Assembly (NCBI GenBank): GCA_014584605.1
Contig: JACTMO010000053.1
Span: 89,792-153,791 of the forward strand
DNA from: Bacteroidota bacterium
GTDB taxonomy: Bacteria > Bacteroidota > Bacteroidia > Flavobacteriales_F > PHOS-HE28
DNA length: 64,000 nucleotides
Direction of reading: 5' to 3'
Shown here: piece by piece, positions 2,870 through 59,814 of the stretch
How the letters are laid out: each line of letters begins with the position of its first letter
Position numbering within the stretch: position 1 is the stretch's first letter
Notes under the pieces: generated by a model
What the model was told of the DNA's origin: nothing
Seen by the model: the letters and a program-made list of their open reading frames with translations, nothing else
Database searches by the model: none
Made by a program: the position numbers and the translations under genes

Positions 2870-2933
2870 CCCGCCGGAGTTCCCGCCGACCGAGGGGCCG
2901 CTTGGCAGGACGTGGTGCGGATGTTAGCTTGCG

Positions 2934-10428: not shown

Positions 10429-10865
10429 CACTCCTTCACGGCCGTGGTGTTGAAGGCCATGGCCACCGTGGCGCCGTTGTCGGCGAAGGCGATGTCGTCG
10501 GCCAGTGCCCGCATCAGGAACACGCCGCGGCCGTGCGGTTTCTCGATGTTCTCCGGGTCGGTGGGGTCGGGCAGGTGGTCGTGGTCGAATCCCGCGCCCT
10601 GGTCCTTCACCACGAACACCACCCGGTCGCCATCGGTGTGGTAGCCCACGGTGACCTGCTTGGCGGGGTCCTGCCGGTTGCCGTGGTGGATGGCGTTGTT
10701 CACCGCCTCGGTGAGCGCGATGAGGATGTTGCCGTAATGCGACTCGTGCACTTGGAGCCGGCCGCACACATCATCGATCATCTTCTCCACCAGCGCGATG
10801 TTCTCCGCCCGGCTGGGGAAGTCGATCTGCTCGGTGAACTGCACGTCCTCGGTCAGGGCCGTCAT
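10428..10865 (-). CDS. ATP-binding protein, anti-sigma regulatory factor-like (HATPase_c_2 / RsbW-type)
   Basis: 'GNILIALTEAVNNAIHHGN' N-box and 'VKDQGAGFD' G1-box of GHKL ATPases, ~145 aa. Start overlaps the stop of the upstream giant gene (ATGA). Confidence 0.7.
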   Translation of the reverse strand: MTALTEDVQFTEQIDFPSRAENIALVEKMIDDVCGRLQVHESHYGNILIALTEAVNNAIHHGNRQDPAKQVTVGYHTDGDRVVFVVKDQGAGFDHDHLPDPTDPENIEKPHGRGVFLMRALADDIAFADNGATVAMAFNTTAVKE

Positions 10866-14272: not shown

Positions 14273-14382
14273 CGGCGTTGGCGTGGGGCGCCAAGGGGTA
14301 AAGGTACGGGGGTGCGCAGGGGGGCGGGCCCGCCTTCGGTACACCGCAGGGTGTTAAAAGGATCGAAGGGCGGGCGACGGGT

Positions 14383-16143: not shown

Positions 16144-16201
16144 GGGGTGGGGCGTGGAGGGCCAAGATATCCGGAACCGCCCTTGTCCCGGCGCATCGCC
16201 T

Positions 16202-20969: not shown

Positions 20970-21041
20970 CGGCCCATGGCTACCTTGGGCCGTGCAACGA
21001 TCCGGCCCGTCCCGCGTTAGGTGAACGCCCGTTCCCACCCC

Positions 21042-30895: not shown

Positions 30896-31058
30896 GGGGG
30901 GGGCGGGTGCGGCCGCTGGATGAGGGCCAGGCCAAAGATAGCCGGACACCCTTGGGCCCGCCCGGCCACACACCAGGCGCCGCCCTTGCACGTTCCATTC
31001 CCACCGGCCGTCGCGCCGCCCGCGCGCACGGCCCGGAAATGGCGACCTTTGACCGACG

Positions 31059-33683
31059 ATGCTCCGCCTGCGCCCGTTCCTCGTCCTCCTTGCCCTGCTG
31101 GCCTCTTTCGCCGTACGGGCCACCCATAACCGGGCGGGCGAGATCGTGTACTGCGTGGACCCGGACAACCCGTTGCGGTACTTCGTGCAGATCATCACCC
31201 ACTCGAAGACCAGCGCACCGGCGGACCGGCCGGAACTGGAGATCTACTGGGGCGACGGTTCGAGCGACACCCTGCCGCGCGTGTCCATCACGCCCATCCT
31301 CGGCGCCGACGCGCAAAGGAACGTGTACGAAGGCGTGCATGTGTTCAACGGCCCCGGTCAGTACATCCTGAGCTTCGAGGACCCCAACCGCAACGAAGGG
31401 GTGCTCAACATCCCCAACTCAGTGAACCAGACCTTCTGCGTCAAGTCGATGCTCACCATCGGCCCGCTCACCGGGGGCAACTGCAGCGTGAACTTCCTGA
31501 ACAGCCCCCTGCAGGACGCCTGCCTGAACACCATGTGGGCGCACAACTCGGTGGCCTTCGACGCCGATGGCGACAGCCTGAGCTACGAACTGCTGGTGTG
31601 CGCCGGTCTGGGCTGCGATCCCATCCCGGGCTACGTTTATCCCGATGCGGTGTCGCCAGCGCCGGACGTGTTCCAGATCGACGGGTTCACCGGCACCCTG
31701 TACTGGGATGCTCCGCAACTGATCGGGGAGTACAACATCGCCTTTCGCGTGCGGGAATGGCGCAAGGTGAACGGTATCCCCTATGAAGTGGGCTGGGTGG
31801 TGCGCGACATGCAGGTGACGGTGAAGCCGTGCAGCAACCAGCCGCCCGTGGTGGACCCGGTGCCCGACACATGCGTGGTGGCCGGCACGGTGCTCACGGT
31901 GAACGTGCAGGCCGGCGACCCCGATCCCGCACAGAACGTGACGCTCACCGCGCTGGGCGGCCCGATGGTGCTGCAACAGAGCCCGGCCACCTTCCAAGCC
32001 GGCCCGCCGGACAATCCGGTGACCGGCGTGCTCACCTGGAGCACGGTGTGCGCCCACGTGCGACTGCAGCCCTACCAGGTGGTGTTCCGCGCCAGCGACA
32101 ACGGCACGCCGGTGGTCCTGGAGGACTATGAACCCATGAACATCACCGTGGTGGCGCCAGCACCGGAGAACCCCACGGCCGCACCCCTGGTGGACGCCAT
32201 CCAGGTGGGCTGGGACGCGAGCGTATGCACCAATGCGGATGGCTACCGCATTTACCGGCGGGTGGGTCCCTTCCCCTTCGTGCCCGACCACTGCGAGACC
32301 GGCGTACCGGCCTACACCGGCTACCAGCTCATCGGCACGGCGGCAGGGAGCGGCACCACCACCTTCCTGGACGACCAGGTCCTCTTCGGCGTGCAGTACT
32401 GCTACCGCATCACGGCATACTTCGGCGATGGGGCCGAGAGCTACAGCAGCGACGAGGTCTGCGCCTTCCTGGAGCGCACCGTGCCGCTGATGACCAAGGT
32501 GAGCGTGGGCGTCACCGATGGCACCGCCGGTCAGGACACCGTGCGATGGACCAACGCCATCGAGCTCGACACCATCGCCCATCCAGGTCCTTACCGGTTC
32601 CAACTGTACCGGGGCGATGGCTTCGGCAGCGCCGGCACCCTGGTGCACACCAGTGCCCTGCACCCCTTCCTGGTCCATCCGGACACCGGGTTCGTGGACA
32701 CAGGTCTCAACACCTCGACACAGCCGAACACCTATAGGGTGGAGCTTTTCGGTTCGGGCGGCACGGTGCGCATCGGCAGCAGCGATCCCGCGTCCAGCGT
32801 GTTCCTGAGCCTGGCCCCGGATGACGAGCGCATCGACCTGAGCTGGCAGGCCAACGTGCCCTGGACGAACACCAGCCATGCGGTGGACCGCTTCGACGGC
32901 ACCCAATGGGTGCAGATCGCCAACACCACCGAACCGCTGTACACGGACACCGGCCTGGTGAACGGACAGACCTACTGCTACCGCGTGCGGACCAGCGGGG
33001 CGTACGGCGACCCGTCGGTCATTGCACCCCTGGTCAACTACAGCCAGGAGGCCTGTGGGCAACCCGTGGACCTGACCCCACCCTGTGCGCCCACCCTGAC
33101 GCTGGACAGCGACTGTGAAGAACCGCTCAACGTGCTGGCCTGGACCAACCCCGACCACAGCTGTGCGGACGACACCTGGTCCTACACGATCTGGTTCACC
33201 GACTCGCTGGGGGGCACGCTGCTGCCCATCGCCACCATCTTCGGCGCTGCGGACACCACCTTCACCCATACGAACGGCAACAGCGTGGCGGGTTGCTACG
33301 CGGTGACGGCCACCGACAGCGTGGGCAACGAAAGTCTGCTGAGCGATACGCTGTGCGCGGACAACTGCCCGCAGTACACGCTGCCCAATGTGTTCAGCCC
33401 CAACGGCGACCGCACGAACGACCATTTTGTCCCCTTCCCGTACCGCGGTGTGGAGCGCATCGACCTGCAGGTGTTCAACCGGTGGGGCAATGTGGTGTTC
33501 ACCACGGAAGACCCCGCCATCGGCTGGGACGGTACCGCGCAGGCCAGCGGGGAGCCCTGTCCGGACGGAGTGTACTACTACCTCTGTACGGTGACCTTTG
33601 CCCGCCTCACCGGGCCGGAGCAGCTGCAATTGAACGGATACGTGCACATCCTGCGCGGGCAGGGCAGCGGCAATGTGAACTGA
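31059..33683 (+). CDS. Large secreted T9SS type-B (gliding motility-associated) CTD protein with Fn3/Ig-like repeats
   Basis: Signal peptide 'MLRLRPFLVLLALLASFAVRA'. C-terminal 'LPNVFSPNGDRTNDHFVPF...DLQVFNRWGNVVF...WDGT...GVYYYLCTV...GYVHILR'. Confidence 0.75.
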   Translation: MLRLRPFLVLLALLASFAVRATHNRAGEIVYCVDPDNPLRYFVQIITHSKTSAPADRPELEIYWGDGSSDTLPRVSITPILGADAQRNVYEGVHVFNGPGQYILSFEDPNRNEGVLNIPNSVNQTFCVKSMLTIGPLTGGNCSVNFLNSPLQDACLNTMWAHNSVAFDADGDSLSYELLVCAGLGCDPIPGYVYPDAVSPAPDVFQIDGFTGTLYWDAPQLIGEYNIAFRVREWRKVNGIPYEVGWVVRDMQVTVKPCSNQPPVVDPVPDTCVVAGTVLTVNVQAGDPDPAQNVTLTALGGPMVLQQSPATFQAGPPDNPVTGVLTWSTVCAHVRLQPYQVVFRASDNGTPVVLEDYEPMNITVVAPAPENPTAAPLVDAIQVGWDASVCTNADGYRIYRRVGPFPFVPDHCETGVPAYTGYQLIGTAAGSGTTTFLDDQVLFGVQYCYRITAYFGDGAESYSSDEVCAFLERTVPLMTKVSVGVTDGTAGQDTVRWTNAIELDTIAHPGPYRFQLYRGDGFGSAGTLVHTSALHPFLVHPDTGFVDTGLNTSTQPNTYRVELFGSGGTVRIGSSDPASSVFLSLAPDDERIDLSWQANVPWTNTSHAVDRFDGTQWVQIANTTEPLYTDTGLVNGQTYCYRVRTSGAYGDPSVIAPLVNYSQEACGQPVDLTPPCAPTLTLDSDCEEPLNVLAWTNPDHSCADDTWSYTIWFTDSLGGTLLPIATIFGAADTTFTHTNGNSVAGCYAVTATDSVGNESLLSDTLCADNCPQYTLPNVFSPNGDRTNDHFVPFPYRGVERIDLQVFNRWGNVVFTTEDPAIGWDGTAQASGEPCPDGVYYYLCTVTFARLTGPEQLQLNGYVHILRGQGSGNVN

Positions 33684-34397: not shown

Positions 34398-36320
34398 TCA
34401 CCGTTTCACCAGAACGCCGCGCACGCCGTCCGCCTCCACCACATACACCCCGGCGGCAAGGTCGGCCACGGGCAGCGCGATGCGCCGGTCGGTGATCGGT
34501 CGTGCGGGCAGAACGCGCACCGAACGGCCGTGGAGGTCGGTGATGCGCACATCCGCATGGCCTTGATGCGTGCCGCCCAGGTACAGCAGCGCATCGCCTT
34601 CGGCGGGGTTGGGGTACAGCACGGCACGGCCGTCGGTGGCTGCCAGCGTGGGCACGCGCAACACCAGGTTCTGTCCGGTGATCAGCCAGGTGTCCGGGTC
34701 CAGCAGCACGCTGTCCGCCTGGAAGGGCAGCCACAGGCCGAAGGTCTGGCCATCGGCGGTATGGTCCAGCACCACCAGGCTGTCCTGGGTGCCGTTCTTG
34801 AAGCGCAGGGGTACGGGGAGCTCGAAGAAGGCAACGCTGGGGTGCGAGCTGCTCTGGAACAGCTGCAGGGACACGTTGCCGCCCGCGTCCTGGCTCCATT
34901 CCACGGTGTAGGAGGGGTGGCCCTCGCCGATGTACCAATCGGCCATGAAGCCGTCGAGGTCCAGCCCGCTGGCGGCCTCCAGGTGGCCCTGTAGATCGCT
35001 GGTGTGGGCGTTGGAATAGGCCAGTTGCGGGTCGTTCAGGTAGTTGCGACAGCCGGCGAAGAAGGCGCTGTCCCCGCACACCCAGCGCAGCATGTGCAGC
35101 ACCATCGCGCCTTTGCGGTAGGTCAGGCGGGCGCTGAACAGACGGGCGATGTCGGTGGTGTCGCTCACCCGGACGCTGCCGTCCGGCAGGCTGGTGATGT
35201 CGGCCACCTGCGCCAGCTTCCACCCGGGCCAGTATTGTGCGGCGAGCGTTTCGTAGCACAGGCCGGAGAGGTAGGTCGCGAAGCCTTCGTTGAGCCACAG
35301 GTCCTGCCAGCTGGCGCAGGTCACCTTGTCGCCGAACCATTGGTGGGCCAGCTCATGGGCGGCCAGTTCGTAGCTCCACCCGCCCATGAAGGTCATGGTC
35401 TGGTGTTCCATGCCGCCGCCCCAGCCGAACTGCGCATGCCCGTACTGCTCGTCCGCGAAGGGGTAGTTGCCGAAGCGGCTGCTGTAGAAGGGCATCTGCT
35501 GGGCCACATCGCCGGCCACAAGCTGCGCCAGGTAGTCGTCCTGCGGATAGGCATAGGTCCACATCGTCACCGTGTCGCCGACCAGGGGGATCTGTGTCTG
35601 GCTGACGGTGTAGTCGCACACGGCCGTTGCGATCAGGTAGTAAGCGATGGGGTGGCGGTGGCGCCAGTGATGGATGCGTTGCGTGCCGCCGTTCACGGGG
35701 GTCACCGACATCAGCACGCCGTTGCTCACCGCCTCATATGCGGCCGGAACCGTGAGGAACACGTCGATGGAATCGATCTTGTCGTGCAGGTCCTGTTTGC
35801 AGGGCCACCAGTCGCGCGCACCGTAGGGTTCGCTCAGGGTCCACTGGGCGGTGTTGCCCAGTGGGTTGCCCACGGCGAAGGAGCCGAAGCCGCTGCCGCT
35901 GGGGGCACCGCTGTACACCACCGTCACACTGTCCATGGCGCCCGGGGCCAGCGGCGTGGGAAGGTCGATCCACAGGATGCCGTCGGTGCCGTGCGTCCAG
36001 ATGAGCGGGTCGGTGCCATGCAGCACGGCGCTCACGTGAAGGGCGGTGTCGGCATCGAAGCGCAGGGTGCTCAGTACGGCGGTGGCCGTGAAGTGGCTCC
36101 GCACCGTGCCGCTGATGAAGTTCACGGCCGGGTCGATCGACCATTCCAGCCGGTGGTGGTGAAGGTCATAGCCCCAGGTAGGGCTGCCGTGCCGCAACAG
36201 GTGTTCCGTCCCATGCCGCTCGCGCCAGGCCAGTTCGTCGAGCACGCCTTTGTCCCAGGCCACTTGCGCGGTGGCGCCCAGGGCCAGCAGCAGGGTGCCG
36301 AGCAGGGCAGGGTGCCGCAT
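34398..36320 (-). CDS. M1-family zinc metallopeptidase (aminopeptidase N-like) with T9SS type-A CTD
   Basis: 'GGMEHQTM' (GAMEN-like) and 'HELAHQWFGDKVT...WLNEGFATY' (HEXXH + E). C-terminal 'VLYPNPAEGDALLYLGG...YVVEADGVRGVLVKR'. Confidence 0.85.
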   Translation of the reverse strand: MRHPALLGTLLLALGATAQVAWDKGVLDELAWRERHGTEHLLRHGSPTWGYDLHHHRLEWSIDPAVNFISGTVRSHFTATAVLSTLRFDADTALHVSAVLHGTDPLIWTHGTDGILWIDLPTPLAPGAMDSVTVVYSGAPSGSGFGSFAVGNPLGNTAQWTLSEPYGARDWWPCKQDLHDKIDSIDVFLTVPAAYEAVSNGVLMSVTPVNGGTQRIHHWRHRHPIAYYLIATAVCDYTVSQTQIPLVGDTVTMWTYAYPQDDYLAQLVAGDVAQQMPFYSSRFGNYPFADEQYGHAQFGWGGGMEHQTMTFMGGWSYELAAHELAHQWFGDKVTCASWQDLWLNEGFATYLSGLCYETLAAQYWPGWKLAQVADITSLPDGSVRVSDTTDIARLFSARLTYRKGAMVLHMLRWVCGDSAFFAGCRNYLNDPQLAYSNAHTSDLQGHLEAASGLDLDGFMADWYIGEGHPSYTVEWSQDAGGNVSLQLFQSSSHPSVAFFELPVPLRFKNGTQDSLVVLDHTADGQTFGLWLPFQADSVLLDPDTWLITGQNLVLRVPTLAATDGRAVLYPNPAEGDALLYLGGTHQGHADVRITDLHGRSVRVLPARPITDRRIALPVADLAAGVYVVEADGVRGVLVKR

Positions 36321-36383: not shown

Positions 36384-37337
36384 TCAGCGTACGGCTTTCA
36401 GGATGGCGCGCACGGCCTCGCTCCGGCCCATGGTGTAGAAGTGCAGGCAGGGCACGTTGCGGGCGGTCAGTTCACGGGCCTGTTGGACACCCCATTCGAT
36501 GCCCACCTGCTTGACCTCCTCATCCGTGCGGCATTTGGCCAGCTCGGTGCTGAAGGCCACCGGCAGGTCCAGGTGGAAGGTCTTGGGGATGAAGGCGATG
36601 TGCTTCCGGTTGGTGAGGGGCTTGAGGCCGGGGATGATGGGCACGGTGATGCCCTCGGCGCGGCAGCGGTCCACGAAGGCGAAGTACTTGGCGTTGTCGA
36701 AGAACATCTGGGTCACCAGGTACTCGGCACCGGCCTCCACCTTCTGCTTCAGGTAGGCGATGTCGGTGTCCAGGTTCAGCGCCTCGGGGTGCTTCTCGGG
36801 GTAGCAGGCGGCGCCGATGCACAGGTCGGTGGGAGCGGTCTCCGTTTCCTCCTCGTGCAGGTAATGGCCCTTGTTGAGGGCGGCGATCTGGCGCACCAGG
36901 TCCACGGCGTGAGCGTGGCCATCGCGCTCGGGCACGAAATGCCCCTCGTTCTTGATGGCGTCGCCCCGCAGGGCCAGCACGTTGCCGATGCCCAGGAAGT
37001 TGAGCTCGATGAGGGCGTCCTCGGTGTCCTCCTGGCTGAAGCCACCGCAGATCAGGTGGGGCACCGTGTCCACGCTGTACTTGGCCTTGATCATGGCGCA
37101 GATGCCCACGGTGCCCGGGCGTTTGCGCAGGCGCACCTTGCGCAGCAGGCCATGCCCCATGTCCTTGTAGAGCACCTCTTCGCGGTGGTACGTGACGTTG
37201 ATGAAGCTCGGGCCGAACTCCATCAACGGGTCGATGCCTTCGTAGATCGAACGGATGTCGCGGCCCTTGAGCGGGGGCAGGATCTCGAAGCTGAAGAGCG
37301 TGGCGGAGGCCTTGCGCAGGTGGTCGGTGACCTTCAT
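36384..37337 (-). CDS. metF: 5,10-methylenetetrahydrofolate reductase
   Basis: 'FSFEILPP', 'SFINVTY', 'HLICGG', 'LRGD', 'YLVTQMFFD' are MetF signatures. Confidence 0.9.
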   Translation of the reverse strand: MKVTDHLRKASATLFSFEILPPLKGRDIRSIYEGIDPLMEFGPSFINVTYHREEVLYKDMGHGLLRKVRLRKRPGTVGICAMIKAKYSVDTVPHLICGGFSQEDTEDALIELNFLGIGNVLALRGDAIKNEGHFVPERDGHAHAVDLVRQIAALNKGHYLHEEETETAPTDLCIGAACYPEKHPEALNLDTDIAYLKQKVEAGAEYLVTQMFFDNAKYFAFVDRCRAEGITVPIIPGLKPLTNRKHIAFIPKTFHLDLPVAFSTELAKCRTDEEVKQVGIEWGVQQARELTARNVPCLHFYTMGRSEAVRAILKAVR

Positions 37338-37400: not shown

Positions 37401-39521
37401 TCAGCGCAACAGGGTCACATGGCCGGAGTACTCCTTGCCGTCGCTGCGCGTGAGAACGTAGTAGTAGGTGCCCTCGCTCACATCCTTGGGCGACCACTGG
37501 TTGCGATAGCTGGCGCTCTCGTACACCTTCTGGCCCCAGCGGTTGTACACCTTCAGGTCGCTGTTGGGGAAGTACTCCACGCCGGAGAATTCCAGGTTGT
37601 CGTTATCACCATCGCCGTTGGGGCTGAACACATTGGGCACGAAGATCTCCGTGGGGATCACCAGGAAGAGGTAGGTGGCCGTGTCGGTGCAGCCGTTGCT
37701 GGTGGTCACCGTCAGGGTGATCGGGTAGGTGCCCGGCTCGTCGAAGGTGATGCCTGCGGTGCTGCCGGTGCCGCCCCCCTGGCCGCCCAGGTCCCACAGC
37801 CACTGCGTGATGGGGTCCTGGCTGCTGCTGCCGTCGCTGAAGATCACCGGGGTCCCGGGGAACACCGGACCGGGTGGATCGGCGAGGATGCCGGCCTCGG
37901 GCCCGGGAGCGGTCACCACGTTCACGGGAGCCGAGGTGCCCTGGCAGCCCGCATCATTGGTCACCGTCACCGTATAGGTGCCGGTGTTCACCGCCACGGT
38001 CGGGGTCTGTGCGCCGGTGCTCCACAGGTATTGTGCGTAGGGCTGTGTGGTGCTGAGCACGGCCGGGTCGTCCCCGCAGGAGAACAGGTTGCCGGTGATC
38101 ACGGGCTGGGGCACCGGAGCTTCGGTCACCACCACCGTGTTGCTGCCGAAGGTGCAGTAGCCGGCGGTGACCTCCACGCTGTAGGTGCCCGGGCCCACCA
38201 GCACGCTGTTGCCGTCGTACCCGTTGCTCCAGGTGTACGTGTCGTAGAGCGGGGGCACCGAGAGGGTGACGCCCTGCCCGGCGCAGGCCACGGTGTCGCC
38301 GGCGATCACCGGGGCCGGCAGGGTGGTGAAGTACACCTCCACCACGATGTCGATGGTGGTGGTGAGCGGCGGCGAGCCGTTGTCGGTGGCCGTGAAGGTG
38401 ATGGTGTGGAAACCGGCCTCCAGCGGGGTGGGGGTGAACTGGCCCTGCACCACCACCGAGTTGTTGCCGCTGGTGTTCAGCACCTCGGCATAGCCCGAGA
38501 GGGTGGGGGCCGTGGAACTGGCCACCGTCACCTGGCCCTGCTCGGGGGCGATGAAGTTCATCTCGATGTCCACCAGCTCGCCGGTGCACACCCGCACGGT
38601 GTCGCACAGGAAGGTGCTGCTGGCGATGGGCGGGATGTTCTGGGTGCTCACCGAGGTGGTGAAGACGAAGTTCTGATCGTCCAGCCAGTCCACGCCGTCC
38701 GGCACGCCAAAGGGCCCATCATAGGCCATGCCCGGCTGGTCAAAGGTGCCGAACTGGATGTAGTCCACCCCATTGCCACGGTTGGCACCCACCACCGCCG
38801 GGATGCCCCCGAAGCCGTTGGTGCCCTGGGAGGCCGCACCAGTGGTCCAGTCCATGTCCTTGTAGCAGAAGCTCACGTTCCGGCCCACGCCGATCACCGG
38901 ATCGTTGCCGTCGGTGATGATCAGCTGGAAGGTGCATTTCTTGTCGGTCTCCGAGTTGTAATACCCCACATCCACCCAGTTCACATACAACGCCGAGGGG
39001 GTCACCTTGTAGAGCACCTGACCGCCGTTGAGGCCCATGCCGTCGTCGCCGCGGGTGTCCACGTCCGCCCAGAAAGGCGCCACCATGATGAAATCGGCGT
39101 TGGGGAAGGAGCTTGCGCTGTACGTGGGGTAGGGGGCCTGGAAGGAGATGTTGCCGTTGTTGTTGATGAACAACGTGTTGTAGAGGTCGCCGTAAAGATT
39201 GAACTGGAAGGGGATGTAGATGGCCGCAGAGGAGCCGTCGTCGTTGGGCGCCAGGGCCAGTTGGTAGGTGCTATCCGGCGTGATCCAGCAGTTACAGTCG
39301 CCGTTCACACCACCACCGCCGCCTTTGGGACGGGCTGGTGCTGCCGTGGAGCGGTGTACCGGCGGGGTTATGGGCTCCTGCGCCGGTCGCAGCAATTCGA
39401 ATTCGGCGGGCAGCCTGCCCTGGGCCTTCAGGGCGTCGTAGTCGGCCGTGGTGAGCTTCACTTGGGCCACGGCGGCGCTGTGCAGCACCATGGCGGCGAA
39501 AAGGAGGAGCGGTTTGCGCAT
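37401..39521 (-). CDS. Adhesin-like T9SS type-B CTD protein, paralog A (NIDO-like N-terminal domain, Ig/PKD-like repeats)
   Basis: Signal peptide 'MRKPLLLFAAMVLHSAAVAQ'. The N-terminal ~270 aa ('DCNCWI...IPFQFNLYGDLYNTLFINNNGNISF...FWADVDTRG') is tentatively nidogen-like. C-terminal 'VPNVFSPNGDGDNDNLEF...VYNRWGQKVYE...GTYYYVL...GHVTLLR'. Confidence 0.75.
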   Translation of the reverse strand: MRKPLLLFAAMVLHSAAVAQVKLTTADYDALKAQGRLPAEFELLRPAQEPITPPVHRSTAAPARPKGGGGGVNGDCNCWITPDSTYQLALAPNDDGSSAAIYIPFQFNLYGDLYNTLFINNNGNISFQAPYPTYSASSFPNADFIMVAPFWADVDTRGDDGMGLNGGQVLYKVTPSALYVNWVDVGYYNSETDKKCTFQLIITDGNDPVIGVGRNVSFCYKDMDWTTGAASQGTNGFGGIPAVVGANRGNGVDYIQFGTFDQPGMAYDGPFGVPDGVDWLDDQNFVFTTSVSTQNIPPIASSTFLCDTVRVCTGELVDIEMNFIAPEQGQVTVASSTAPTLSGYAEVLNTSGNNSVVVQGQFTPTPLEAGFHTITFTATDNGSPPLTTTIDIVVEVYFTTLPAPVIAGDTVACAGQGVTLSVPPLYDTYTWSNGYDGNSVLVGPGTYSVEVTAGYCTFGSNTVVVTEAPVPQPVITGNLFSCGDDPAVLSTTQPYAQYLWSTGAQTPTVAVNTGTYTVTVTNDAGCQGTSAPVNVVTAPGPEAGILADPPGPVFPGTPVIFSDGSSSQDPITQWLWDLGGQGGGTGSTAGITFDEPGTYPITLTVTTSNGCTDTATYLFLVIPTEIFVPNVFSPNGDGDNDNLEFSGVEYFPNSDLKVYNRWGQKVYESASYRNQWSPKDVSEGTYYYVLTRSDGKEYSGHVTLLR

Positions 39522-39535
39522 GGATCGTTCGGAGG

Positions 39536-42451
39536 TCACTTCAGCAGGCTCACATGGCCCACCCATTCCTGCTTGTCGGCGGCGAACACCGGTCGGCCGA
39601 TCAGCCGCCAGGTGTACACCCCGGAGGGCAGGATCTCCCCGCCGCCTTGGGCGCGGCCGTCCCAGCCCTGCAGGATGTCGTGGGTCTTGAAGATGAGCTG
39701 ACCCCAGCGGTCATAGACCTCCAGGGTATGCTCTTCGGGCACCAGGTCCGCCAGGATGGGCAGGAAGATCTCATTGAGGTTGTTGCCGTCGGGCGTGAAG
39801 GCGTTGGGCACGTAGATGGCCGGCACGTACACCGGCACCACCTTGCACAGCGAATCGGCGCAGCCATAGCGGTCGACCACATGCAGGCACACCTCGTGGT
39901 CATCGCCGATCACATCGCTGAACTCGTAGTACAGCGTGCGCTGGGTGGCGGTGTCCGTACCGTTGAAGGTCCACAGCCATTCAACGGCCTCGGGGTCGTC
40001 GCTGGCGAAGTAGATGGATGCGTTGTGCTCGGTTCCCGGGTTGGGGCTGAAGGTGAAGGTGGCCTGCGGGGCCGGCTTGGCGATCACCGCGCCCGGCACC
40101 TGCAACTGGTCGGTGCAGCCTGCGGGGGTGGTCACCGTCAGCCCCACGGTGTAGGAGCCCGGCGTGCTGTACAGGTGCGTCACGCTGTCGCAGCCCAGGG
40201 TGCTGGACCCATCGCCCAGGTCCCATACGCAGACCCCGCCCAGGAAGGCGCTGTCGGTGGTGTTGTACAGGCCCGCCAGCACCGGTACGCACCCGCTGTC
40301 GGGGTCCACCGTGAAGGTCACCACGGGCAGGGGGTTCACGGTCACCTCCACCAGGGCCGTGTCGATGAGATGGGTGCAGCTGCCGCCGCCCTGCACGGCG
40401 TACAGGTAGGTACCAGCGGGGTCCACCGACGGATCGAGCATGGCGGCGTGCGCCTGTCCCCCCGGGTCGGTCCAGCTGCCGCCCAAGTCCGGCGAGCCGC
40501 CCAACAAGGGGAACAACGGGGTCGCCGGGCCGTCCGCACAGAGCGTCAGCAGGGCGTCCTGCCCGGCGTCGGGTTCGGGGTCCACGGACAGGGTAAGGGT
40601 GGCGGTGAGCGTCGGGCAGGGCGCCGTGGCGGTCACCGTGTAGGTGTAGGCGCCTGGAGGATCGTTGGCGGCGTTGAAGGTGCCCGGGAAGGGTTGCTGG
40701 TTGGGATCGGTCCACGTGCCGGTGGCGTCGGGCGTGCCGCCCAGGGTGGCCAGCATGTCCAGCGGCGCGGCGTCGGTGCACAGGGTGAGGGCGGCGTCCG
40801 TGCCGGCGTCCACGGCCTGGGGAATGGAGACCGTGACAAAGGCCGTGTCGTTGGGGCAGGGACTTGTGCCGGACACGATGTAGCGGTATGTCCCGGCCGG
40901 GTCGGTACCGGGGTCAAGCGTTCCGGAGAAGACGCTGCCGTTGGGATATTGCCATGCGCCCGTGGCCATGGGGCCGCCGGGGATGTTCAGGAAGAGGTCG
41001 TCCGGCCCGTCGCTGCTGCAATAGGACAGGGCCACGTCCTGCCCGGCGTTCACCGAGGCCTGGGTGGTCATGGTCACCGTGCCGGTGGAGGCGCAGCTGC
41101 TGCCCTGACCCACGGCATAGAGGTAGGCCCCGTCGATATCGGTGCCCGGGGTGAAGGTGCCGGTGTGCACGTTGCCGTTGGGGTCGGTCCAGTCGCCGTT
41201 GGCCGGTGGATTTCCACCCAGCAGGGTCAGCATGTCCAGCGGCGGTTCCGAATCGCACACCGTCAGTGCGCCCGATGTGATCACCGACCCCTGCTGCACC
41301 TCGACGATGATGTTCACGGTGGAGGTCATCGATGGGGTGCCGTCGTCGGTGCCCTGGATGGAGATGACGTGGAAGCCCACGTCGGCCGGAGTGGGCAGGA
41401 TGTCGATGCTGATGGTGGCGGCCAGGCCCGGCACCAGGCTGGTGATGTTGAAGTTGGTCAGGGTGAGGCTGGTGGCCGAGGGGGTGGTGATCTGGCCCGG
41501 CTCGGGGGAGAGGAAGGTGACGTCCAGGGTGGCCAGGTCGCCCACGCACAGGATGATCGAATCGCACACGCTCTGGCCGCTCACCACCGGAGGCACGTTG
41601 GCCGTGGTGATGTCGGTGCTGAAGCTGAAGTACTGGTCGTCCAGGAAGCTCACCCCATCGTTGAGGCCGAAGGGCCCGTCGTAGGCCGTGCCGGGCTGAT
41701 CGAAGCGGCCGAACTGGATGTAGTCCACACCGTTGCCCTCGTTGGCCCCCACGCTGGCGGGCGTGCCGCCAAAGCCGTTGGTGCCCCCGCTGGCAGAGCC
41801 CGTGGTCCACTGCATGTCCTTGTAACAAAAGCTCACGTTGGCCCCGTTGGGCACCACCGGATCGGTGCCGTCGGTGATGATCAATTGGAAGGTGTTGACC
41901 TTGTCGGTCATGCTGTTGTAGTAGCCCACGTTGGTCCAGTTCACGTACAGGGCCGTGGAGGTCACCTTGAACTGCACCACGTTGTTGCCGAAACCCGGTC
42001 CTCGCAGGTCCACATCGGCCCAGAAGGGGGCCACCATGGTGTAGCCGTTGAAGGGGAATCCCGTGGAGCTGAACGTGCCATAATACTGGCCGAAGCTGAC
42101 GTTGCCGTTGATGTTGATATAGACCGTGTTGTACAGCGTGCCGTAGAGATAGAACTGGAAGGGCAGCATGATCGGGCCGTAGCTGCCGTCATCGGCGTTG
42201 TGGAATCCGCTCGCATCCCACTGACTGGTGTTGTTGATCGTGGTATAGCTGGCGTCGGGCAGGATCCAGCAATCGCAGGTGGCGCTGCCGCCGCGTTGCA
42301 TGTACGGATCGGGTGCCGGGGCACCTCCCGTTGCTGGTGCAGGGGGGTGGGTGCTGAGCTTCCAGGCGTCGTAACTGGCCTGGTCGTACGGTACCTGTCC
42401 TGTGCCGGTCAGCGCGGTCAGCAGCAGCAGGGGGATCAGGAGGTGCCGCAT
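39536..42451 (-). CDS. Adhesin-like T9SS type-B CTD protein, paralog B (same NIDO-like N-terminal domain, longer repeat region)
   Basis: The N-terminus 'CDCWILPDASY...MLPFQFYLYGTLYNTVYININGNVSF...FWADVDLRG' aligns with paralog A over ~270 aa. PKD-like 'VWDLGDGSSTLG'. C-terminal 'VPNAFTPDGNNLNEIFLP...VYDRWGQLIFK...GHVSLLK'. Confidence 0.75.
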   Translation of the reverse strand: MRHLLIPLLLLTALTGTGQVPYDQASYDAWKLSTHPPAPATGGAPAPDPYMQRGGSATCDCWILPDASYTTINNTSQWDASGFHNADDGSYGPIMLPFQFYLYGTLYNTVYININGNVSFGQYYGTFSSTGFPFNGYTMVAPFWADVDLRGPGFGNNVVQFKVTSTALYVNWTNVGYYNSMTDKVNTFQLIITDGTDPVVPNGANVSFCYKDMQWTTGSASGGTNGFGGTPASVGANEGNGVDYIQFGRFDQPGTAYDGPFGLNDGVSFLDDQYFSFSTDITTANVPPVVSGQSVCDSIILCVGDLATLDVTFLSPEPGQITTPSATSLTLTNFNITSLVPGLAATISIDILPTPADVGFHVISIQGTDDGTPSMTSTVNIIVEVQQGSVITSGALTVCDSEPPLDMLTLLGGNPPANGDWTDPNGNVHTGTFTPGTDIDGAYLYAVGQGSSCASTGTVTMTTQASVNAGQDVALSYCSSDGPDDLFLNIPGGPMATGAWQYPNGSVFSGTLDPGTDPAGTYRYIVSGTSPCPNDTAFVTVSIPQAVDAGTDAALTLCTDAAPLDMLATLGGTPDATGTWTDPNQQPFPGTFNAANDPPGAYTYTVTATAPCPTLTATLTLSVDPEPDAGQDALLTLCADGPATPLFPLLGGSPDLGGSWTDPGGQAHAAMLDPSVDPAGTYLYAVQGGGSCTHLIDTALVEVTVNPLPVVTFTVDPDSGCVPVLAGLYNTTDSAFLGGVCVWDLGDGSSTLGCDSVTHLYSTPGSYTVGLTVTTPAGCTDQLQVPGAVIAKPAPQATFTFSPNPGTEHNASIYFASDDPEAVEWLWTFNGTDTATQRTLYYEFSDVIGDDHEVCLHVVDRYGCADSLCKVVPVYVPAIYVPNAFTPDGNNLNEIFLPILADLVPEEHTLEVYDRWGQLIFKTHDILQGWDGRAQGGGEILPSGVYTWRLIGRPVFAADKQEWVGHVSLLK

Positions 42452-42458
42452 GCCGGGT

Positions 42459-43646
42459 TCAACGGATGATGTTCACGGTGTTGCTGAAGATCTTGGCCCG
42501 GCCCGCCAGGTCCACCACCTCCACGGCATAAAGGTAGGTCCCACTGGGGCAGGGCTGGCCGTGCAGATCGTTACCGTCCCAAGGACGAAGGTCGTTGGCC
42601 GAGTACACCATCGAACCATTGGTGCTGCTGAAGATCCGCACGGCCACACGTTGATATTGGCTGCCCTGCGGTACCCATTGTTCGTTCTCCCCATCGCCGT
42701 TGGGGGTGAACACATTGGGGATGAAGAGCACGGGCTCGGGGACGGCCGTTCCCCCGGCCTCCGGTCCAGGCTCGGGTACCAGCACCTCGACAGGGCTCCG
42801 TGCAGCCTCAGGCGTGCGGTCCTTGCCGTGGGACAGCTCGTGCAGCACCTCCTCCACGACCTGCCTGCCCGCAGGGTCCGGTACGGCCTCCATCGTCCGT
42901 TGTGCGACCTGTACGGAGGCGGCGACCGCTTCGGATGTCGGGGCATCGGATCCGGCGACCTGCGCCGGTGCGGGGTCGGTGGACACCATGTGTTCCTGCG
43001 CGGTCGTGGCGGCGCCATCGGTCGTTGCCCCCTCGGGTTCGGCGGGAAGCGTGACCGTTCGGGCGGGTTGGGGTGCGGCTGCCGGGGTGAGCACCGTGGC
43101 CTTCGGTCCTGGGGGCGCTCCGGCGTTGGCGGTGGGCGTGTCCGCGATCACCGGTGCGGTGACCACGGAGCGAGGGACGGGGTTCACCACCGGTGCCTTC
43201 ACCGCGACCGGTCCTGCACGGTGCTTGTCCGCCGCCAGGTACAGCCCGCCGACCAGCAACAAGGCCGCTGCACCACCGACCGCCCAACCCACCACGGAAC
43301 TGCCGCCAGGAATGGTCGCGCCCCGGCCCAGCTGACCTTCGATGGCGGTCCATGCGGAGTTCGGTACGGCCGCCTCATGACCGGCGAAGCGCTCGCGCAA
43401 CAGGCTGTTCACCGGATCGGCCTGGCCCACCCGTTGTTCGATGGCCCCCCAACTGGCGGGGTCCACCGCGACCTCGTGGTCGGCGAAGCGCTCGCGCAGC
43501 AGCCCGCAGATCGGGTCGGTACCTACGGCGGCCATGGCCGTCCGGGTGCGGATCGCCTCCCACACCCCGCGTGGTACGGCCATCTCATGGTCGGCGAAGC
43601 GCTCGCGCAGGGTCCGGGTCAGTTCATCCTTCCGCTCCATCGCCAT
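42459..43646 (-). CDS. Single-pass membrane protein, anti-sigma-factor-like: cytoplasmic triple repeat, TM helix, Pro/Ala-rich linker, T9SS type-B CTD
   Basis: Immediately downstream of, and overlapping, the ECF sigma gene. Three ~23-aa repeats 'LLRERFADHE(M/V)AV...W.AI'. TM 'VVGWAVGGAAALLLVGGLYLAA'. Low-complexity P/A/T linker. C-terminal 'IPNVFTPNGDGENEQWVP...VRIFSSTNGSMVYSANDLRPWDGNDL...GTYLYAVEVVD...NIIR'. Confidence 0.6.
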   Translation of the reverse strand: MAMERKDELTRTLRERFADHEMAVPRGVWEAIRTRTAMAAVGTDPICGLLRERFADHEVAVDPASWGAIEQRVGQADPVNSLLRERFAGHEAAVPNSAWTAIEGQLGRGATIPGGSSVVGWAVGGAAALLLVGGLYLAADKHRAGPVAVKAPVVNPVPRSVVTAPVIADTPTANAGAPPGPKATVLTPAAAPQPARTVTLPAEPEGATTDGAATTAQEHMVSTDPAPAQVAGSDAPTSEAVAASVQVAQRTMEAVPDPAGRQVVEEVLHELSHGKDRTPEAARSPVEVLVPEPGPEAGGTAVPEPVLFIPNVFTPNGDGENEQWVPQGSQYQRVAVRIFSSTNGSMVYSANDLRPWDGNDLHGQPCPSGTYLYAVEVVDLAGRAKIFSNTVNIIR

Positions 43647-44181
43647 AGATGTCGGCCGCCTCCTTGGGCAGCAGTTTGCGCAGGTAGGCGCGTGCTTTCA
43701 TGAACTGGCTCTTCGAGGTGTTCTCGCTGATCCCCATCATCTCGCTGATCTCCTTGTGGGCGTAGCCTTCGATGGCGAAGAGGTTGAACACCGCCCGGTA
43801 TCCCGGGGGCAGGGCCTGGATCAGTTCCATGAGCTCATCGGTGCTCATCTGGCCAAGCACTTGGGCATCCTCGCTGTGCAGGTGCTCGGCCTCGGTGAGG
43901 TCCAGGCTGTGGTCGTAGGGCTTGTTCCGCCGGATGTGGTCCAAGGCGGTGTTCACCATGGTGCGGGCGATCCACCCCCCCAGCGGACCATCGCCGCGGT
44001 AGTGGTCCATTTTCTGGAACACCTTAACGAACCCGTCCTGCAGGATGTCCTGGGCCTGTTCACGCCCCGGGGCGTACCGCATGCAGATGCTCATCATCTT
44101 CCGGGCGTAGCAACGGTAGAGCTCCTTCTGGGCCAGGGGGTCGCCCTGGAGGCATCCGTTCACGAGCTGTTCGTCGGTCAT
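43624..44181 (-). CDS. RNA polymerase ECF-type sigma-70 factor
   Basis: Region 2 'ELYRCYARKMMSICMRYAPGREQAQDILQDGFVKVF' and region 4 'LPPGYRAVFNLFAIEGYAHKEISEMMGISENTSKSQ'. ATG at 44179-44181; the tracked ORF begins with TTG at 44208. Confidence 0.9.
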   Translation of the reverse strand: MTDEQLVNGCLQGDPLAQKELYRCYARKMMSICMRYAPGREQAQDILQDGFVKVFQKMDHYRGDGPLGGWIARTMVNTALDHIRRNKPYDHSLDLTEAEHLHSEDAQVLGQMSTDELMELIQALPPGYRAVFNLFAIEGYAHKEISEMMGISENTSKSQFMKARAYLRKLLPKEAADIYGDGAEG

Positions 44182-44383
44182 GTGTGGCGCACCAAAGCCG
44201 TTCAACAAAAGGTGCTTCCGGGTGGAATGATGCGATCCGCCCCCGAAAAGTTGCCCGGCCCCTGCAAGTTAGGGCACCGGCCCGGGTCCGGGGAAGCCGA
44301 CCGCCGGACTTCGCACCGACCGTCGGCCCCTTCGGCCAACGCCGCCTTACCTTCGTGCGTCCCAGAAGACAACAGAACCGAAC

Positions 44384-50418: not shown

Positions 50419-50670
50419 CGGGCCAAAGTTGGCATGGCGCGGAGCATGCTGCCGCAAGTATCGGTTAACACGGCTGCCGCCGGTCCTGCTTACGGAGCCG
50501 GTGCGCAGGAAGCGGTCGATCCCGGCATCGGACAGGGGCGTGAAGAAGTGTGGAGGTGAGGATGGCCAGGGCTTTCAGCTTCCTTACGTCCTCACCTCTT
50601 CACCGGAACAGGTTGGATCTTCGTTGCCGCTTCAGTAACTTGCCCACGCTCCGAACGCCACTACGTCTCC

Positions 50671-52062
50671 ATGCGCAACACGACCCTGCTTCTTCTATCC
50701 GGCCTTGCCATCAGCGCCATGGGCCAGGGCACGATCACCAGTGTACAGATCACCCCGAGCACGCTCACCGAATGCACGTTCATGAACGTGACGGTGATCG
50801 GCACCATCCCCGGGAACGCCCAGGTGACGGGTTTCGTCCCGGGGCAGAACGGGAACAACATCACCATCGTGTTGACCGCCTCGGGCACGGGAGGCGGAAC
50901 GGGATCGTTCAACCAGCCGTTGCCGCCCCTGGGCCCGTACACCGCCGGGACCTACAACGTGCAGATCTCGCTGGAGCTGAACGGCACCATCACGGATACC
51001 GAGACGCTTCAGCGCACCGTGCAGCCGGGCGTGAACCCTGACGCGGGCACGGATGCCTCGGTCTTGGGGGTGTGCGACACGGACCCCAATTTCCTGTTGA
51101 TCAATGAACTGGGTGGTTCGCCCGACCCCGGAGGGGTGTGGACCAACCCGCTGAACCAGCCGCACAGCGGCAATTTCAACCCGGGCACCGATCCGGGCGG
51201 GTTCTACCTGTACACCATCGAGGCCCTGGCCCCGTGCAGCACCGTGCAGAGCAGCGTGTACGTGGAATACGCGCCCAACAGCGATCCCGGTGACGATGGC
51301 GCGGTGACCGTGTGCGTGAACGGGGCTCCGATCGACCTGTTCGCCAACCTGCAGGGCACCCCGGAGACCGGTGGCACGTGGAGCGGCCCCAGTCCGGTGG
51401 TGAACGGCCAGTACGACCCGGCCACGATGACGCCCGGAGCCTACGTGTACACGGTGCAGGGCATGGGCAACTGCGGCAACCCCTCGGCCACGGTGACCGT
51501 GAGCGAGGCGAACCTGCCCAACGCCGGCACGGCCGTGCCCATCACGGCCTGCGCCACGGACACCAGCCTGACGCTCAGTACCGGGCTCACGGGTAATCCC
51601 TTGCAAACGGGCGTGTGGCTCGATCCGCTCGGTTTTCTGCTCGGGCCCTACAACGTGGTCATCAACCCGTCCATCTACGGTGCCGGCAACCACAACTTCC
51701 GCTACGTGGCCACCAACACCTTCTGCCCCAACGACACCACCACGGTGCCGGTGACCCTGCTGGCCGCACCGTGCGGCATCAGCGTGCAGGAGATCGCCGC
51801 CGGCGTGACGCGATTCAAGGTAATGCCCAACCCGGCCCGCGAACGCGCCACGGTGGAGCTGAGCCTTGCCGCGGGCATGGGTGCGGTGCGGCTGGAGTTG
51901 CTCGGCACCGACGGCCGTTCCGTGCGTCGGGAGCGGCTGGCCGGCAGCGGCCGCACCGAACTGCGCCACGACCTCGACCTCGGCGGGCTCGAGGCAGGCA
52001 CCTACCTGCTGCGCCTCACCACGGACCGTGGGAACGTGGCGCGGACCCTGGTGGTGGAATAA
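50671..52062 (+). CDS. Secreted T9SS type-A CTD protein (Ig-like repeats)
   Basis: Signal peptide 'MRNTTLLLLSGLAISAMGQ'. C-terminal 'FKVMPNPARERATVELS...GTYLLRLTTDRGNVARTLVVE'. Confidence 0.7.
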   Translation: MRNTTLLLLSGLAISAMGQGTITSVQITPSTLTECTFMNVTVIGTIPGNAQVTGFVPGQNGNNITIVLTASGTGGGTGSFNQPLPPLGPYTAGTYNVQISLELNGTITDTETLQRTVQPGVNPDAGTDASVLGVCDTDPNFLLINELGGSPDPGGVWTNPLNQPHSGNFNPGTDPGGFYLYTIEALAPCSTVQSSVYVEYAPNSDPGDDGAVTVCVNGAPIDLFANLQGTPETGGTWSGPSPVVNGQYDPATMTPGAYVYTVQGMGNCGNPSATVTVSEANLPNAGTAVPITACATDTSLTLSTGLTGNPLQTGVWLDPLGFLLGPYNVVINPSIYGAGNHNFRYVATNTFCPNDTTTVPVTLLAAPCGISVQEIAAGVTRFKVMPNPARERATVELSLAAGMGAVRLELLGTDGRSVRRERLAGSGRTELRHDLDLGGLEAGTYLLRLTTDRGNVARTLVVE

Positions 52063-58032: not shown

Positions 58033-59814
58033 ATGAAGACAACGCAGACTTTGGCCGTGTCAATGGCCCTGGGCTCTCTATCATCCATGGCACAGAGCTT
58101 CGATCACTTGGATGCGAACATGATCCGGGCCCGATTCACGGCCCATGGCATGATCGGGCTTGATCGGAGCGTTGGCGAGCCGGATTTTGAGGTGCCCGTT
58201 GGAAGCGGGGCCCATGCGTTGTTCGCAGCCTCAATGTGGGTGGGTGGGTACGATACGCTTGGCAGCTTGCATCTTGCTGGCCTGCTGTTCGACCAGAACG
58301 GGCTGCCCGACTACGCCCCAGGACCGCTTACAACGGACGGCAGCGCATCGATCACTCCGGCCGTGTCAGCCCAGTATGATCAAGTGTTCAAGGTCAAAGC
58401 CGTGGATGTTGCCCTGCACCAGGCCTACTACGATTGTTTGAACACGCCAGGATGCGATGTCAATGTTCAGTTCCCCGGGTATGTGATACCCCAGAGTTTT
58501 CTTGACTGGCCAGGGAACGGTGACACCTTGGCTGGTCAGGCCGCCCGGTTGGCGCCATTCATCGATCTTGATGGTGACGGGCTGTATGAGCCGACCGCCG
58601 GTGATGCACCATGCATCCACGGGGATGAAGCACTCTATTTCATGTTCAATGATGTGCTGAACCCGCATGGCACGGGCGGTGCTCCCCTTGGTATCGAGGT
58701 CCATGCCATGCCCTTCGCATTCTATTCCGCCAACGAGGCACTCGCGCACACGCTCTTCATCAAGTACCGGCTCATCAATCGAAGCGATGACTCCTTTGAA
58801 ATGGTCCGCATTGGTCTGTTCACTGACTATGACCTTGGATATGGTCGTGATGACTACGTGGGCTCTGATCCCGGAAGGAATCTCGGCTACGTGTACAACG
58901 CGGATACGCTGGATGAAACGACATCAACCTATACCGGATATGGGTCGATGCCACCCGCTTTTGGGACAACGCAGCTCAAAGGTCCGTTCCTGGAGCCTGA
59001 TGGGTTTGACGATCCCGAAGGACCGGGTATACCCGCTTTCAATGGCTCTGGTTTTGGTGACCTGGTGGTCGACAATGAACGTCATGGTGTCGCGTACATG
59101 ACCTACTTCAGCAATGACGCCACCGCCCGAGGCAATCCGAATACAGCCGAACAGTTCTTCGGTTATCTGAGCGGGTACTGGCGCGACGGAACACCGCTCT
59201 TCCATGGAGGCACTGGGCATTACTCCGATCCCGAGGCCACGACCGTTCCAGCGCGCTTTGCATTTCCAAGTTCTGAAGACCCACTTGGAGCGGGAACAGG
59301 TGGTCAGGTGATGGCTCCATGGGCGGAGCATTCATCAGGCAATCAACCGAGGGATAGGCGGATGGTCATGTCGGCCGGACCCGTGGAGCTGGATGCCGGA
59401 GAGGAGATCGAACTTGTCTACGCGTTCGTGTTCGCCCGCCCAGGATCCAATGGGCTGATGAGCAGCGTTCTGCGGCTACAGGAAAGGGTGGATTCGGTAC
59501 AGGCTTTTTACAATGATCTGCCGGAGGCGTGCAACGGAGCGGGATCTCAGGTGGGTTTGGAGGAACACACAGACCGTGGACCAATCGTATTTCCCGTTCC
59601 GGCCGAAGATCGTCTGACCTTAAGGCTTGAGGTCCCCGGTCCAGTGGAATTGGTCGTGTACGATATGCTCGGCGTGGAGTGCTCGAGAGGGCGCGATACC
59701 GGGGATCTGATCCAGATCGACCTTTCGGAGCTTGGTCAAGGCTCGTATCTGTTGCATGTTGCTCAAGGCGAGGTGAGCCATGTTGTTCCGTTCATGAAGA
59801 TCACGACCAGATAG
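58033..59814 (+). CDS. Secreted T9SS type-A CTD protein of unknown function, with markedly lower GC than its surroundings
   Basis: Signal peptide 'MKTTQTLAVSMALGSLSSMAQS'. C-terminal 'IVFPVPAEDRLTLRLEVPGPVELVVYDMLG...GSYLLHVAQGEVSHVVPFMKITTR'. Third-codon positions are visibly less G/C-rich (~55% GC by eye versus ~70% for flanking genes). Confidence 0.7.
   Translation: MKTTQTLAVSMALGSLSSMAQSFDHLDANMIRARFTAHGMIGLDRSVGEPDFEVPVGSGAHALFAASMWVGGYDTLGSLHLAGLLFDQNGLPDYAPGPLTTDGSASITPAVSAQYDQVFKVKAVDVALHQAYYDCLNTPGCDVNVQFPGYVIPQSFLDWPGNGDTLAGQAARLAPFIDLDGDGLYEPTAGDAPCIHGDEALYFMFNDVLNPHGTGGAPLGIEVHAMPFAFYSANEALAHTLFIKYRLINRSDDSFEMVRIGLFTDYDLGYGRDDYVGSDPGRNLGYVYNADTLDETTSTYTGYGSMPPAFGTTQLKGPFLEPDGFDDPEGPGIPAFNGSGFGDLVVDNERHGVAYMTYFSNDATARGNPNTAEQFFGYLSGYWRDGTPLFHGGTGHYSDPEATTVPARFAFPSSEDPLGAGTGGQVMAPWAEHSSGNQPRDRRMVMSAGPVELDAGEEIELVYAFVFARPGSNGLMSSVLRLQERVDSVQAFYNDLPEACNGAGSQVGLEEHTDRGPIVFPVPAEDRLTLRLEVPGPVELVVYDMLGVECSRGRDTGDLIQIDLSELGQGSYLLHVAQGEVSHVVPFMKITTR

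Follow-up and report, generated by a model that had tools for sequence, protein, structure and literature searches.

How might a bacterium make the expression of its surface proteins follow the state of the machine that exports them? To our knowledge, the matching of cargo expression to machine state in type IX secretion systems (T9SS) is largely unknown in Bacteroidota outside Porphyromonas gingivalis (the PorXY-SigP-PorA pathway), and we know of no established trigger for the Dma-type anti-sigma factors. Both questions are raised by a locus in a stretch of 64,000 nucleotides (nt; hereafter the window) from a Bacteroidota bacterium (assembly GCA_014584605.1, contig JACTMO010000053.1, positions 89,792 to 153,791), in which the gene for an extracytoplasmic function (ECF) sigma factor is followed by that for an anti-sigma-like membrane protein. 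We read this protein as a Dma-like anti-sigma factor in which a T9SS type-B-class C-terminal domain (CTD) takes the place of the outer membrane (OM) barrel, so that docking of the CTD would govern proteolytic release of the sigma factor, and we give this reading a probability of roughly 0.6. The family, which is large and conserved, appears to join the sigma-binding module of Dma factors with a T9SS recognition domain in an operon that also encodes type-B cargo, and one polypeptide would thus connect the two questions.

The elements on which this reading depends are listed here in window coordinates; the genes of the operon all lie on the minus strand.

44208..43624, minus strand: open reading frame (ORF) of the sigma factor, opening at TTG
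43624..44181, minus strand: ECF sigma factor gene, 185 amino acids (aa), the ATG at 44181 being the start of the conserved MTDEQLV N-terminus
42459..43646, minus strand: anti-sigma-like gene encoding 395 aa, with a 23-nt overlap at the sigma stop
43299..43646, minus strand: N-terminal region, presumed to be cytoplasmic (aa 1-116), containing three helix-loop-helix repeats
43230..43298, minus strand: single Gly/Ala-rich transmembrane (TM) helix, aa ~117-139, the sole hydrophobic segment (mean Kyte-Doolittle value 1.87)
42732..43229, minus strand: acidic, A/P/V/T-rich disordered linker, aa 140-305 (~166 aa)
42831..42872, minus strand: short amphipathic helix within the linker, aa 259-272, GRQVVEEVLHEL, modelled as a helix by AlphaFold2 and alignable across the family
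42462..42731, minus strand: T9SS type-B-class CTD of a specialised subclass, aa ~306-395 (PF13585, TIGR04131 and the AlphaFold2 model)

The layout is that claimed in the original prediction, an ECF sigma gene and a partner gene that overlaps its end, and the pair looks like a sigma factor with a co-transcribed, single-pass anti-sigma-like protein. By its domain matches (Sigma70_r2, PF04542, 60.4 bits; Sigma70_r4_2, PF08281, 57.6 bits; TIGR02937, 92.9 bits), the 185-aa protein is an ECF (group 4) sigma-70 factor with sigma-2 and sigma-4 domains only; its NCBIfam matches are generic and point to no specific ECF group. All sigma homologues have this same length of 185 aa when counted from the ATG at 44181. 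The sigma factor is also far better conserved than its partner, with 82-97% identity between loci whose partner proteins share just 30-54%.

The partner protein belongs to no anti-sigma class that can be recognised from domain models. Its N-terminal region has no Pfam or NCBIfam match even at E<=10 and no sequence match in the PDB, and no anti-sigma domain of the zf-HC2, RskA, RseA or FecR type is recognisable with Pfam or NCBIfam. The region contains three repeats of ~25-35 aa, located at aa 12-35, 48-72 and 80-106, with the family-wide consensus eLfReRFqGHEapVDPgvW.aISgQL. AlphaFold2 models each repeat as a helix-loop-helix pair, at low confidence. The repeats are followed by a nearly invariant QLG motif just ahead of the TM segment, for which the model places a helix at aa 120-138.

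Preceded as it is by a charged N-terminus of 116 aa, this segment does not qualify as a signal peptide. We considered it as a cleavable signal peptide and rejected this on the same ground, and also because homologues share no consistent AxA site. From the long charged N-terminus without a signal peptide, the net-negative flank on the C-terminal side, the sensible location that it gives the CTD and the precedent of Dma1, we infer an orientation with the N-terminus in the cytoplasm and the C-terminus outside it. The positive-inside rule is nearly uninformative here, with few Lys or Arg residues on either flank of the TM helix; of the flank charges, just the difference in net charge favours the same orientation.

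Beyond the membrane, the predicted local distance difference test (pLDDT) score is below 50 throughout the linker, apart from the helix at aa 259-272. The linker had been put at ~180 aa and is slightly shorter than that. Among 118 family representatives its sequence is essentially unconserved and strongly acidic (median net charge -14), and its length is confined to 132-210 aa (median 154, standard deviation 11.8). Such a constrained length fits a spacer that has to bridge a set distance in the periplasm, in line with what has been proposed for Dma1. A motif similar to the linker helix GRQVVEEVLHEL is found in 66 of the 118 members, ~49 aa ahead of the CTD.

The C-terminus passes the cutoffs of both models for type-B CTDs against which it was checked, scoring 46.6 bits with PF13585 (CHU_C; gathering cutoff 27) and 38.6 bits with TIGR04131 (cutoff 35); no match to the barrel families PF13568 or PF13505 was found at the C-terminus of the 395-aa protein. 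AlphaFold2 models the domain as a small beta-sandwich with pLDDT ~90, and Foldseek matches to the PDB are generic Ig-like sandwiches alone, including one within PorU. Together, the domain matches and the model bear out the proposal that the only folded module outside the cytoplasm is a T9SS type-B-class CTD. The motifs PNVFTPNGDG, W-G and G-Y-Y and the terminal strand are retained. To call this CTD canonical went too far, as the score barely exceeds the TIGR04131 cutoff and the domain belongs to a divergent subclass that lacks the xRWG motif. The subclass has a history of its own: local alignment scores between the CTDs of anti-sigma proteins from different loci are 140-355, compared with ~80-128 against the cargo CTDs of their own operons. 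We therefore reject a recent origin of the anti-sigma CTD by copying from the cargo CTD next to it, as the anti-sigma CTDs cluster together. On these alignments, the CTD is type-B-class and forms a specialised, vertically inherited subclass.

A separate observation concerns one cluster representative of 395 aa (P0026), in which the repeats, TM helix and linker are kept and the CTD is gone, seemingly through a frameshift around residue ~300; the probable explanation is either a pseudogene or an error of assembly.

Is this architecture an isolated oddity? A search with the full-length protein returned 17 proteins, one of them identical and 16 homologous, with identities of 30-100% and all with PF13585; the gene for the 395-aa protein is hence not a chance ORF. 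The identical protein and the closest relatives come from metagenome-assembled genomes labelled "Flavobacteriales bacterium". An exhaustive profile search using two repeats and the TM helix, with hits counted as representatives of clusters at 50% identity, gave 459 representatives with E<=1e-3, of which 131 reached E<=1e-10. The CTD is present in 126 of the 142 listed profile matches of at least 300 aa. Judged from these matches, the architecture is common to at least 126 clusters at 50% identity and is not a one-off.

Linkage to the sigma factor is equally consistent. Every ORF combining the N-terminal module with the CTD (17 of 17, in 16 loci, plus the window) directly follows a close homologue of the window's sigma gene in the same orientation, and in most cases the codons of the two genes overlap. 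As a control we reused loci with CTD-only genes, obtained from a pattern scan derived from the CTD: roughly 70 loci with other type-B-CTD genes yield just two more sigma matches. The arrangement downstream is also conserved. In the window and in most loci having downstream sequence, the anti-sigma gene is followed by a gene for type-B-CTD cargo, usually with NIDO and PKD domains, and the family survey thus agrees with the expectation that the architecture is conserved and syntenic with T9SS cargo. An exception is L016, where the next ORF scanned has PKD and P-domain matches and no CTD. The cargo is followed by metF in the window, and likewise in L001, L003, L011, L023 and L045, five loci with GC contents from 67% down to 35%.

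In the window, the genes downstream of the anti-sigma-like gene are as follows.

39536..42451, minus strand: cargo 1, 971 aa, with NIDO, PKD and type-B CTD (CHU_C), beginning 7 nt past the anti-sigma stop
37401..39566, minus strand: cargo 2, ~721 aa, with NIDO, PKD and type-B CTD (CHU_C), start codon uncertain
36384..37337, minus strand: metF, downstream of cargo 2
34398-36320, minus strand: M1 peptidase weakly matching a type-A CTD, downstream of metF

A counterpart of cargo 1 comes next in the homologous loci, and cargo 2 is conserved there as well. At 971 and 721 aa, the cargo proteins are not the giant adhesins that had been envisaged.

Upstream of the sigma gene lies a sequence from which the whole operon could be read.

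44228..44255, minus strand: putative two-box ECF-type promoter, GGCAAC-N15-CGCATCA

In full, the motif reads GGCAACyTT-N12-ATCsCATCA, with GGCAACyTT as putative -35 and ATCsCATCA as putative -10 box. Among nine aligned loci, both boxes are invariant and their spacing is fixed, and the spacer itself is variable. The sole exact match in the window is at 44229-44254 on the minus strand; each of 16 sigma/anti-sigma loci has a single copy of the motif, and 77 other loci have none. This distribution suggests an autoregulated ECF-type promoter, which would also drive the cargo genes since the intergenic gaps are 7 nt or less. Two further observations were made in the same region. A second conserved box (GTATCTTG / CTAACTTG) is found ~10-20 nt upstream of the GGCAAC box (window ~44262-44270, minus strand), with equivalents in L001, L003, L008-L010 and L032; its sequence is loosely like that of the housekeeping -7 element of Bacteroidota, and it might support a basal level of transcription. 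In the relative with 35% GC, tandem units of ~24 nt (…TTTATCCTTTGCGCCTCTGCGAG…) stand upstream of the sigma gene (L045 ~4330-4520, plus strand), and the conserved promoter motif is absent.

Where does the N-terminal module come from? The repeat, in 1 to ~6 copies, also heads three other kinds of Bacteroidota protein.

P0135, P0136, P0143: repeat, TM helix, long linker, PKD and CHU_C
L045, L073: single repeat, TM helix, linker, PKD-like segment and CTD
P0132, P0140, P0155, P0164, P0169 (PF13505 only): repeat, TM helix, long disordered region and OM protein beta-barrel (PF13568/PF13505)

The proteins of the last kind have the architecture of Dma anti-sigma factors, and the N-terminal profile detects them with significance (P0132, 3.7e-18; P0140, 3.3e-15; P0155, 3.2e-9; P0164, 4.4e-8); a hidden Markov model of a single repeat matches aa 9-34 of P0169. 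The two barrel proteins and the PKD-plus-CTD protein that were looked up are each encoded directly after an ECF sigma gene, whose product is 40-41% identical to the window sigma factor, as compared with 21% for an unrelated neighbouring ECF sigma. On the strength of these matches, the N-terminal repeat is homologous to that of Dma-architecture proteins. The unrelated sigma factor is of interest in itself: it is encoded on the same contig as one of the homologous loci (L004 1-1481, minus strand), and its partner carries three copies of another N-terminal motif, L..FL..RLEG.LTPEQ, ahead of a TM helix, and may represent another repeat-built anti-sigma family.

Dma1 of Bacteroides thetaiotaomicron spans both membranes, and its residues 1-40 suffice to pull down the ECF21 sigma factor Das1 (PMC10927553). 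As related in the Dma1 paper, Reo of B. fragilis sequesters EcfO via its N-terminal region (PMC10927553), and in Phocaeicola vulgatus transposon insertions in M0N98_03760 activate the sigma regulon (PMC9308784). One repeat of ~30-35 aa is about as long as the 40-residue binding region of Dma1, and variants with one repeat exist. In the Dma papers, the beta-barrel is what defines the family. Word-indexed searches with an alignment of the N-terminus yielded fragments alone, and five proteins were retrieved when a Dma-type alignment served as query, none of them from Bacteroides; kinship with Dma1 itself is suggested by the shared architecture together with the homology to Dma-architecture proteins. 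These factors also bear on the claim that no such case had been described. [quoted passage not shown] The broader claim of an unprecedented, sensor-less, envelope-spanning anti-sigma factor does not survive, as the design is precedented by the Dma factors; the core of the first idea does.

How might such a protein work? The N-terminal helix-loop-helix repeats would keep the ECF sigma factor on the inner membrane's cytoplasmic side, with the Gly/Ala-rich TM helix as the anchor of the protein. The acidic, disordered tether of ~155 aa would cross the periplasm and offer the CTD to the T9SS, either to the translocon or to a PorP/SprF-type shuttle in the OM. The docking state of the CTD (engaged, pulled or free) would then set whether tether and TM helix undergo regulated proteolysis, and a TM helix rich in Gly and Ala would be a suitable target for a site-2 protease. 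Cleavage would liberate the sigma factor, which would act on its own promoter and so raise expression of the operon, comprising the sigma factor, the anti-sigma protein and two adhesin-like NIDO/PKD surface proteins with type-B CTDs. In PorA-PorY-SigP there is precedent for a CTD that signals from the periplasm and stands upstream of an ECF sigma factor (PMC12152298). We infer sigma binding, T9SS docking, proteolytic release and the direction of regulation alike, and consider a T9SS-coupled release of the sigma factor plausible and compatible with the data.

Several observations weigh against this reading. There is no Sec signal peptide, as no hydrophobic stretch is present in the first ~35 aa (family median of the best 10-aa hydropathy, 0.43), and the charges flanking the TM helix support the assumed topology weakly. 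The xRWG motif is present in none of 126 listed anti-sigma-type CTDs, as against 88 of 106 CTD-only ORFs of the fetched loci. Only ~90 aa of the CTD are folded, compared with the 150-235 residues spanned by functional type-B signals, and secretion by the SprB CTD requires all five conserved motifs (PMC12618676). No gene of the PorP/SprF family, the usual partner of a type-B CTD, was found among the window ORFs scanned or among the genes listed for the homologous loci; orphan type-B substrates using a distant shuttle are known (PMC12618676). Finally, PorA tethered to the inner membrane is not carried to the cell surface (PMC12152298), and an inner-membrane-anchored chain going through SprA would have to remain threaded across the OM.

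In the strongest form of the idea, the protein is a genuine T9SS substrate: the assembled and energised T9SS would capture the CTD, pull on the tether and force cleavage or extraction of the anchor, so that the sigma factor is freed in the manner of a FlgM-like checkpoint. We regard this form as doubtful. If true, it would amount to a secretion-competence checkpoint across two membranes, with type-B adhesin cargo switched on only when the machine can export it.

A rival explanation, in which T9SS activity is not the signal, treats the CTD as a passive OM tether. The CTD would simply substitute for the Dma barrel, the protein would sense envelope or OM stress or periplasmic distance, and the cargo would belong to an envelope regulon. 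The N-terminal module held in common with beta-barrel proteins of the Dma type speaks for it, as does the tight length of the linker, which is what would be expected of a ruler or tether; perturbing the envelope evokes a response of Dma1 and of M0N98_03760 (PMC10927553, PMC9308784), and PorP-like barrels retain type-B CTDs at the cell surface (PMC9143113). We nevertheless think it somewhat unlikely, as the type-B-CTD cargo that follows the anti-sigma gene in most loci points to a T9SS-specific output. Moreover, anchoring through a CTD would itself be T9SS-dependent, so that this explanation and the reading of T9SS-governed release are hard to separate.

A second possibility is that the CTD never crosses the OM and serves as bait in the periplasm, competing with cargo CTDs for a T9SS component or shuttle, with the occupancy of that site setting the stability of the anti-sigma protein. 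A CTD without xRWG and with ~90 folded residues may be recognised and not translocated, and the PorA CTD signals from the periplasm by binding PorY even when it is inner-membrane-tethered and unexported (PMC12152298). A tether of ~155 aa under length constraint, however, exceeds what an interaction near the inner membrane would need, and the analysis brought up no candidate partner; on balance, we find this possibility unlikely. The protein is most improbably no anti-sigma factor at all, but a small protein of the cell surface or the T9SS that retains its signal anchor, happens to be encoded in a sigma operon and has repeats with some other role: an N-terminus without Pfam or NCBIfam anti-sigma domains and with helices of low model confidence would allow this, but its gene overlaps or abuts a sigma gene in all 17 instances, its repeat is common to sigma-adjacent Dma-architecture proteins, and its 116-aa charged N-terminus is no signal peptide; in Dma1, the first 40 aa are enough to bind the sigma factor (PMC10927553).

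Elsewhere in the window (GC ~67%), other T9SS-related genes are present. A PorZ-like gene at 21021-23432 (plus strand; PorZ N-terminal beta-propeller, 104.7 bits) lies ~20 kb from the sigma/anti-sigma operon and encodes what we take to be a component of the T9SS attachment complex. Further T9SS cargo is dense: in addition to the M1 peptidase, there is an 876-aa type-B CHU_C protein at 31053-33683 (plus strand), and type-A CTDs are weakly matched by three ORFs, at 14383-16398 (minus strand), 50560-52062 (plus strand) and 58033-59814 (plus strand); the last sits in the only low-GC stretch of the window (58-60 kb, GC 0.58). An ORF of ~1160 aa at 10865-14353 (minus strand), without a Pfam match, combines hydrophobic segments in its N-terminal part with a very long, coiled-coil-like region rich in Q, E and K, which accounts for a strong AT-skew anomaly at 10-14 kb. 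A small OM protein beta-barrel (PF13505; 4686-5528, plus strand) beside a LytTR response regulator (2928-3716, plus strand) was considered as a Dma-type factor and rejected, having neither a preceding sigma gene nor the repeat motif.

How, then, does the proposed system compare with known ones? The anti-sigma factor FlgM is a soluble cytoplasmic protein that is exported whole through the flagellar type III secretion system. The likeness of FlgM/sigma-28 to the present case is conceptual, in that an anti-sigma factor bears the export signal of a secretion machine and machine competence could govern the sigma factor; here the signal would be periplasmic and release would need proteolysis, and there is no homology. 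In the FecA/FecR/FecI and RseA/DegS/RseP systems, which the Dma1 paper also discusses (PMC10927553), a single-pass anti-sigma factor relays an OM or periplasmic event to an ECF sigma factor by regulated proteolysis. Those systems use a folded periplasmic domain together with a separate OM receptor or OM protein signals, whereas the present protein has no detectable FecR, RseA or zf-HC2 domain.

With type-B cargo and its shuttles (SprB/SprF, PG1035/PorP; PMC9143113, PMC12618676), the anti-sigma protein shares a CTD that passes both PF13585 and TIGR04131; it differs in being predicted to be anchored in the inner membrane, and in lacking a cleavable signal peptide, the xRWG motif, an adjacent shuttle gene and a passenger domain. 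In the PorA-PorXY-SigP pathway of P. gingivalis, too, an ECF sigma factor has a T9SS CTD upstream of it in the signalling chain (PMC7712824, PMC12152298). PorA is a separate, signal-peptide-bearing type-A cargo that acts via the two-component system PorY/PorX and is not fused to an anti-sigma factor, and its pathway regulates genes for T9SS components.

The closest relatives are the Dma factors (Dma1/Das1, BT_4721/BT_4720; Reo/EcfO; M0N98_03760/61). Their genes take the same position directly after that for an ECF sigma factor, and the proteins likewise begin with a short cytoplasmic segment, sigma-binding in Dma1 and predicted to be so here, which is followed by a single TM helix, an extended disordered tether and a C-terminal module with the OM as its presumed destination, in a family restricted to Bacteroidota. 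The differences lie in the C-terminus, a T9SS type-B-class CTD of ~90 aa here and an 8-stranded PF13568 barrel in Dma; in the number of N-terminal repeats, 2-3 here and one in Dma; and in the operon, which holds T9SS cargo here and NigD-type genes in Dma. The Dma N-terminal module thus appears to be combinatorial, occurring with beta-barrel, CTD and PKD-plus-CTD C-termini, which argues that the principle behind it holds generally within the phylum.

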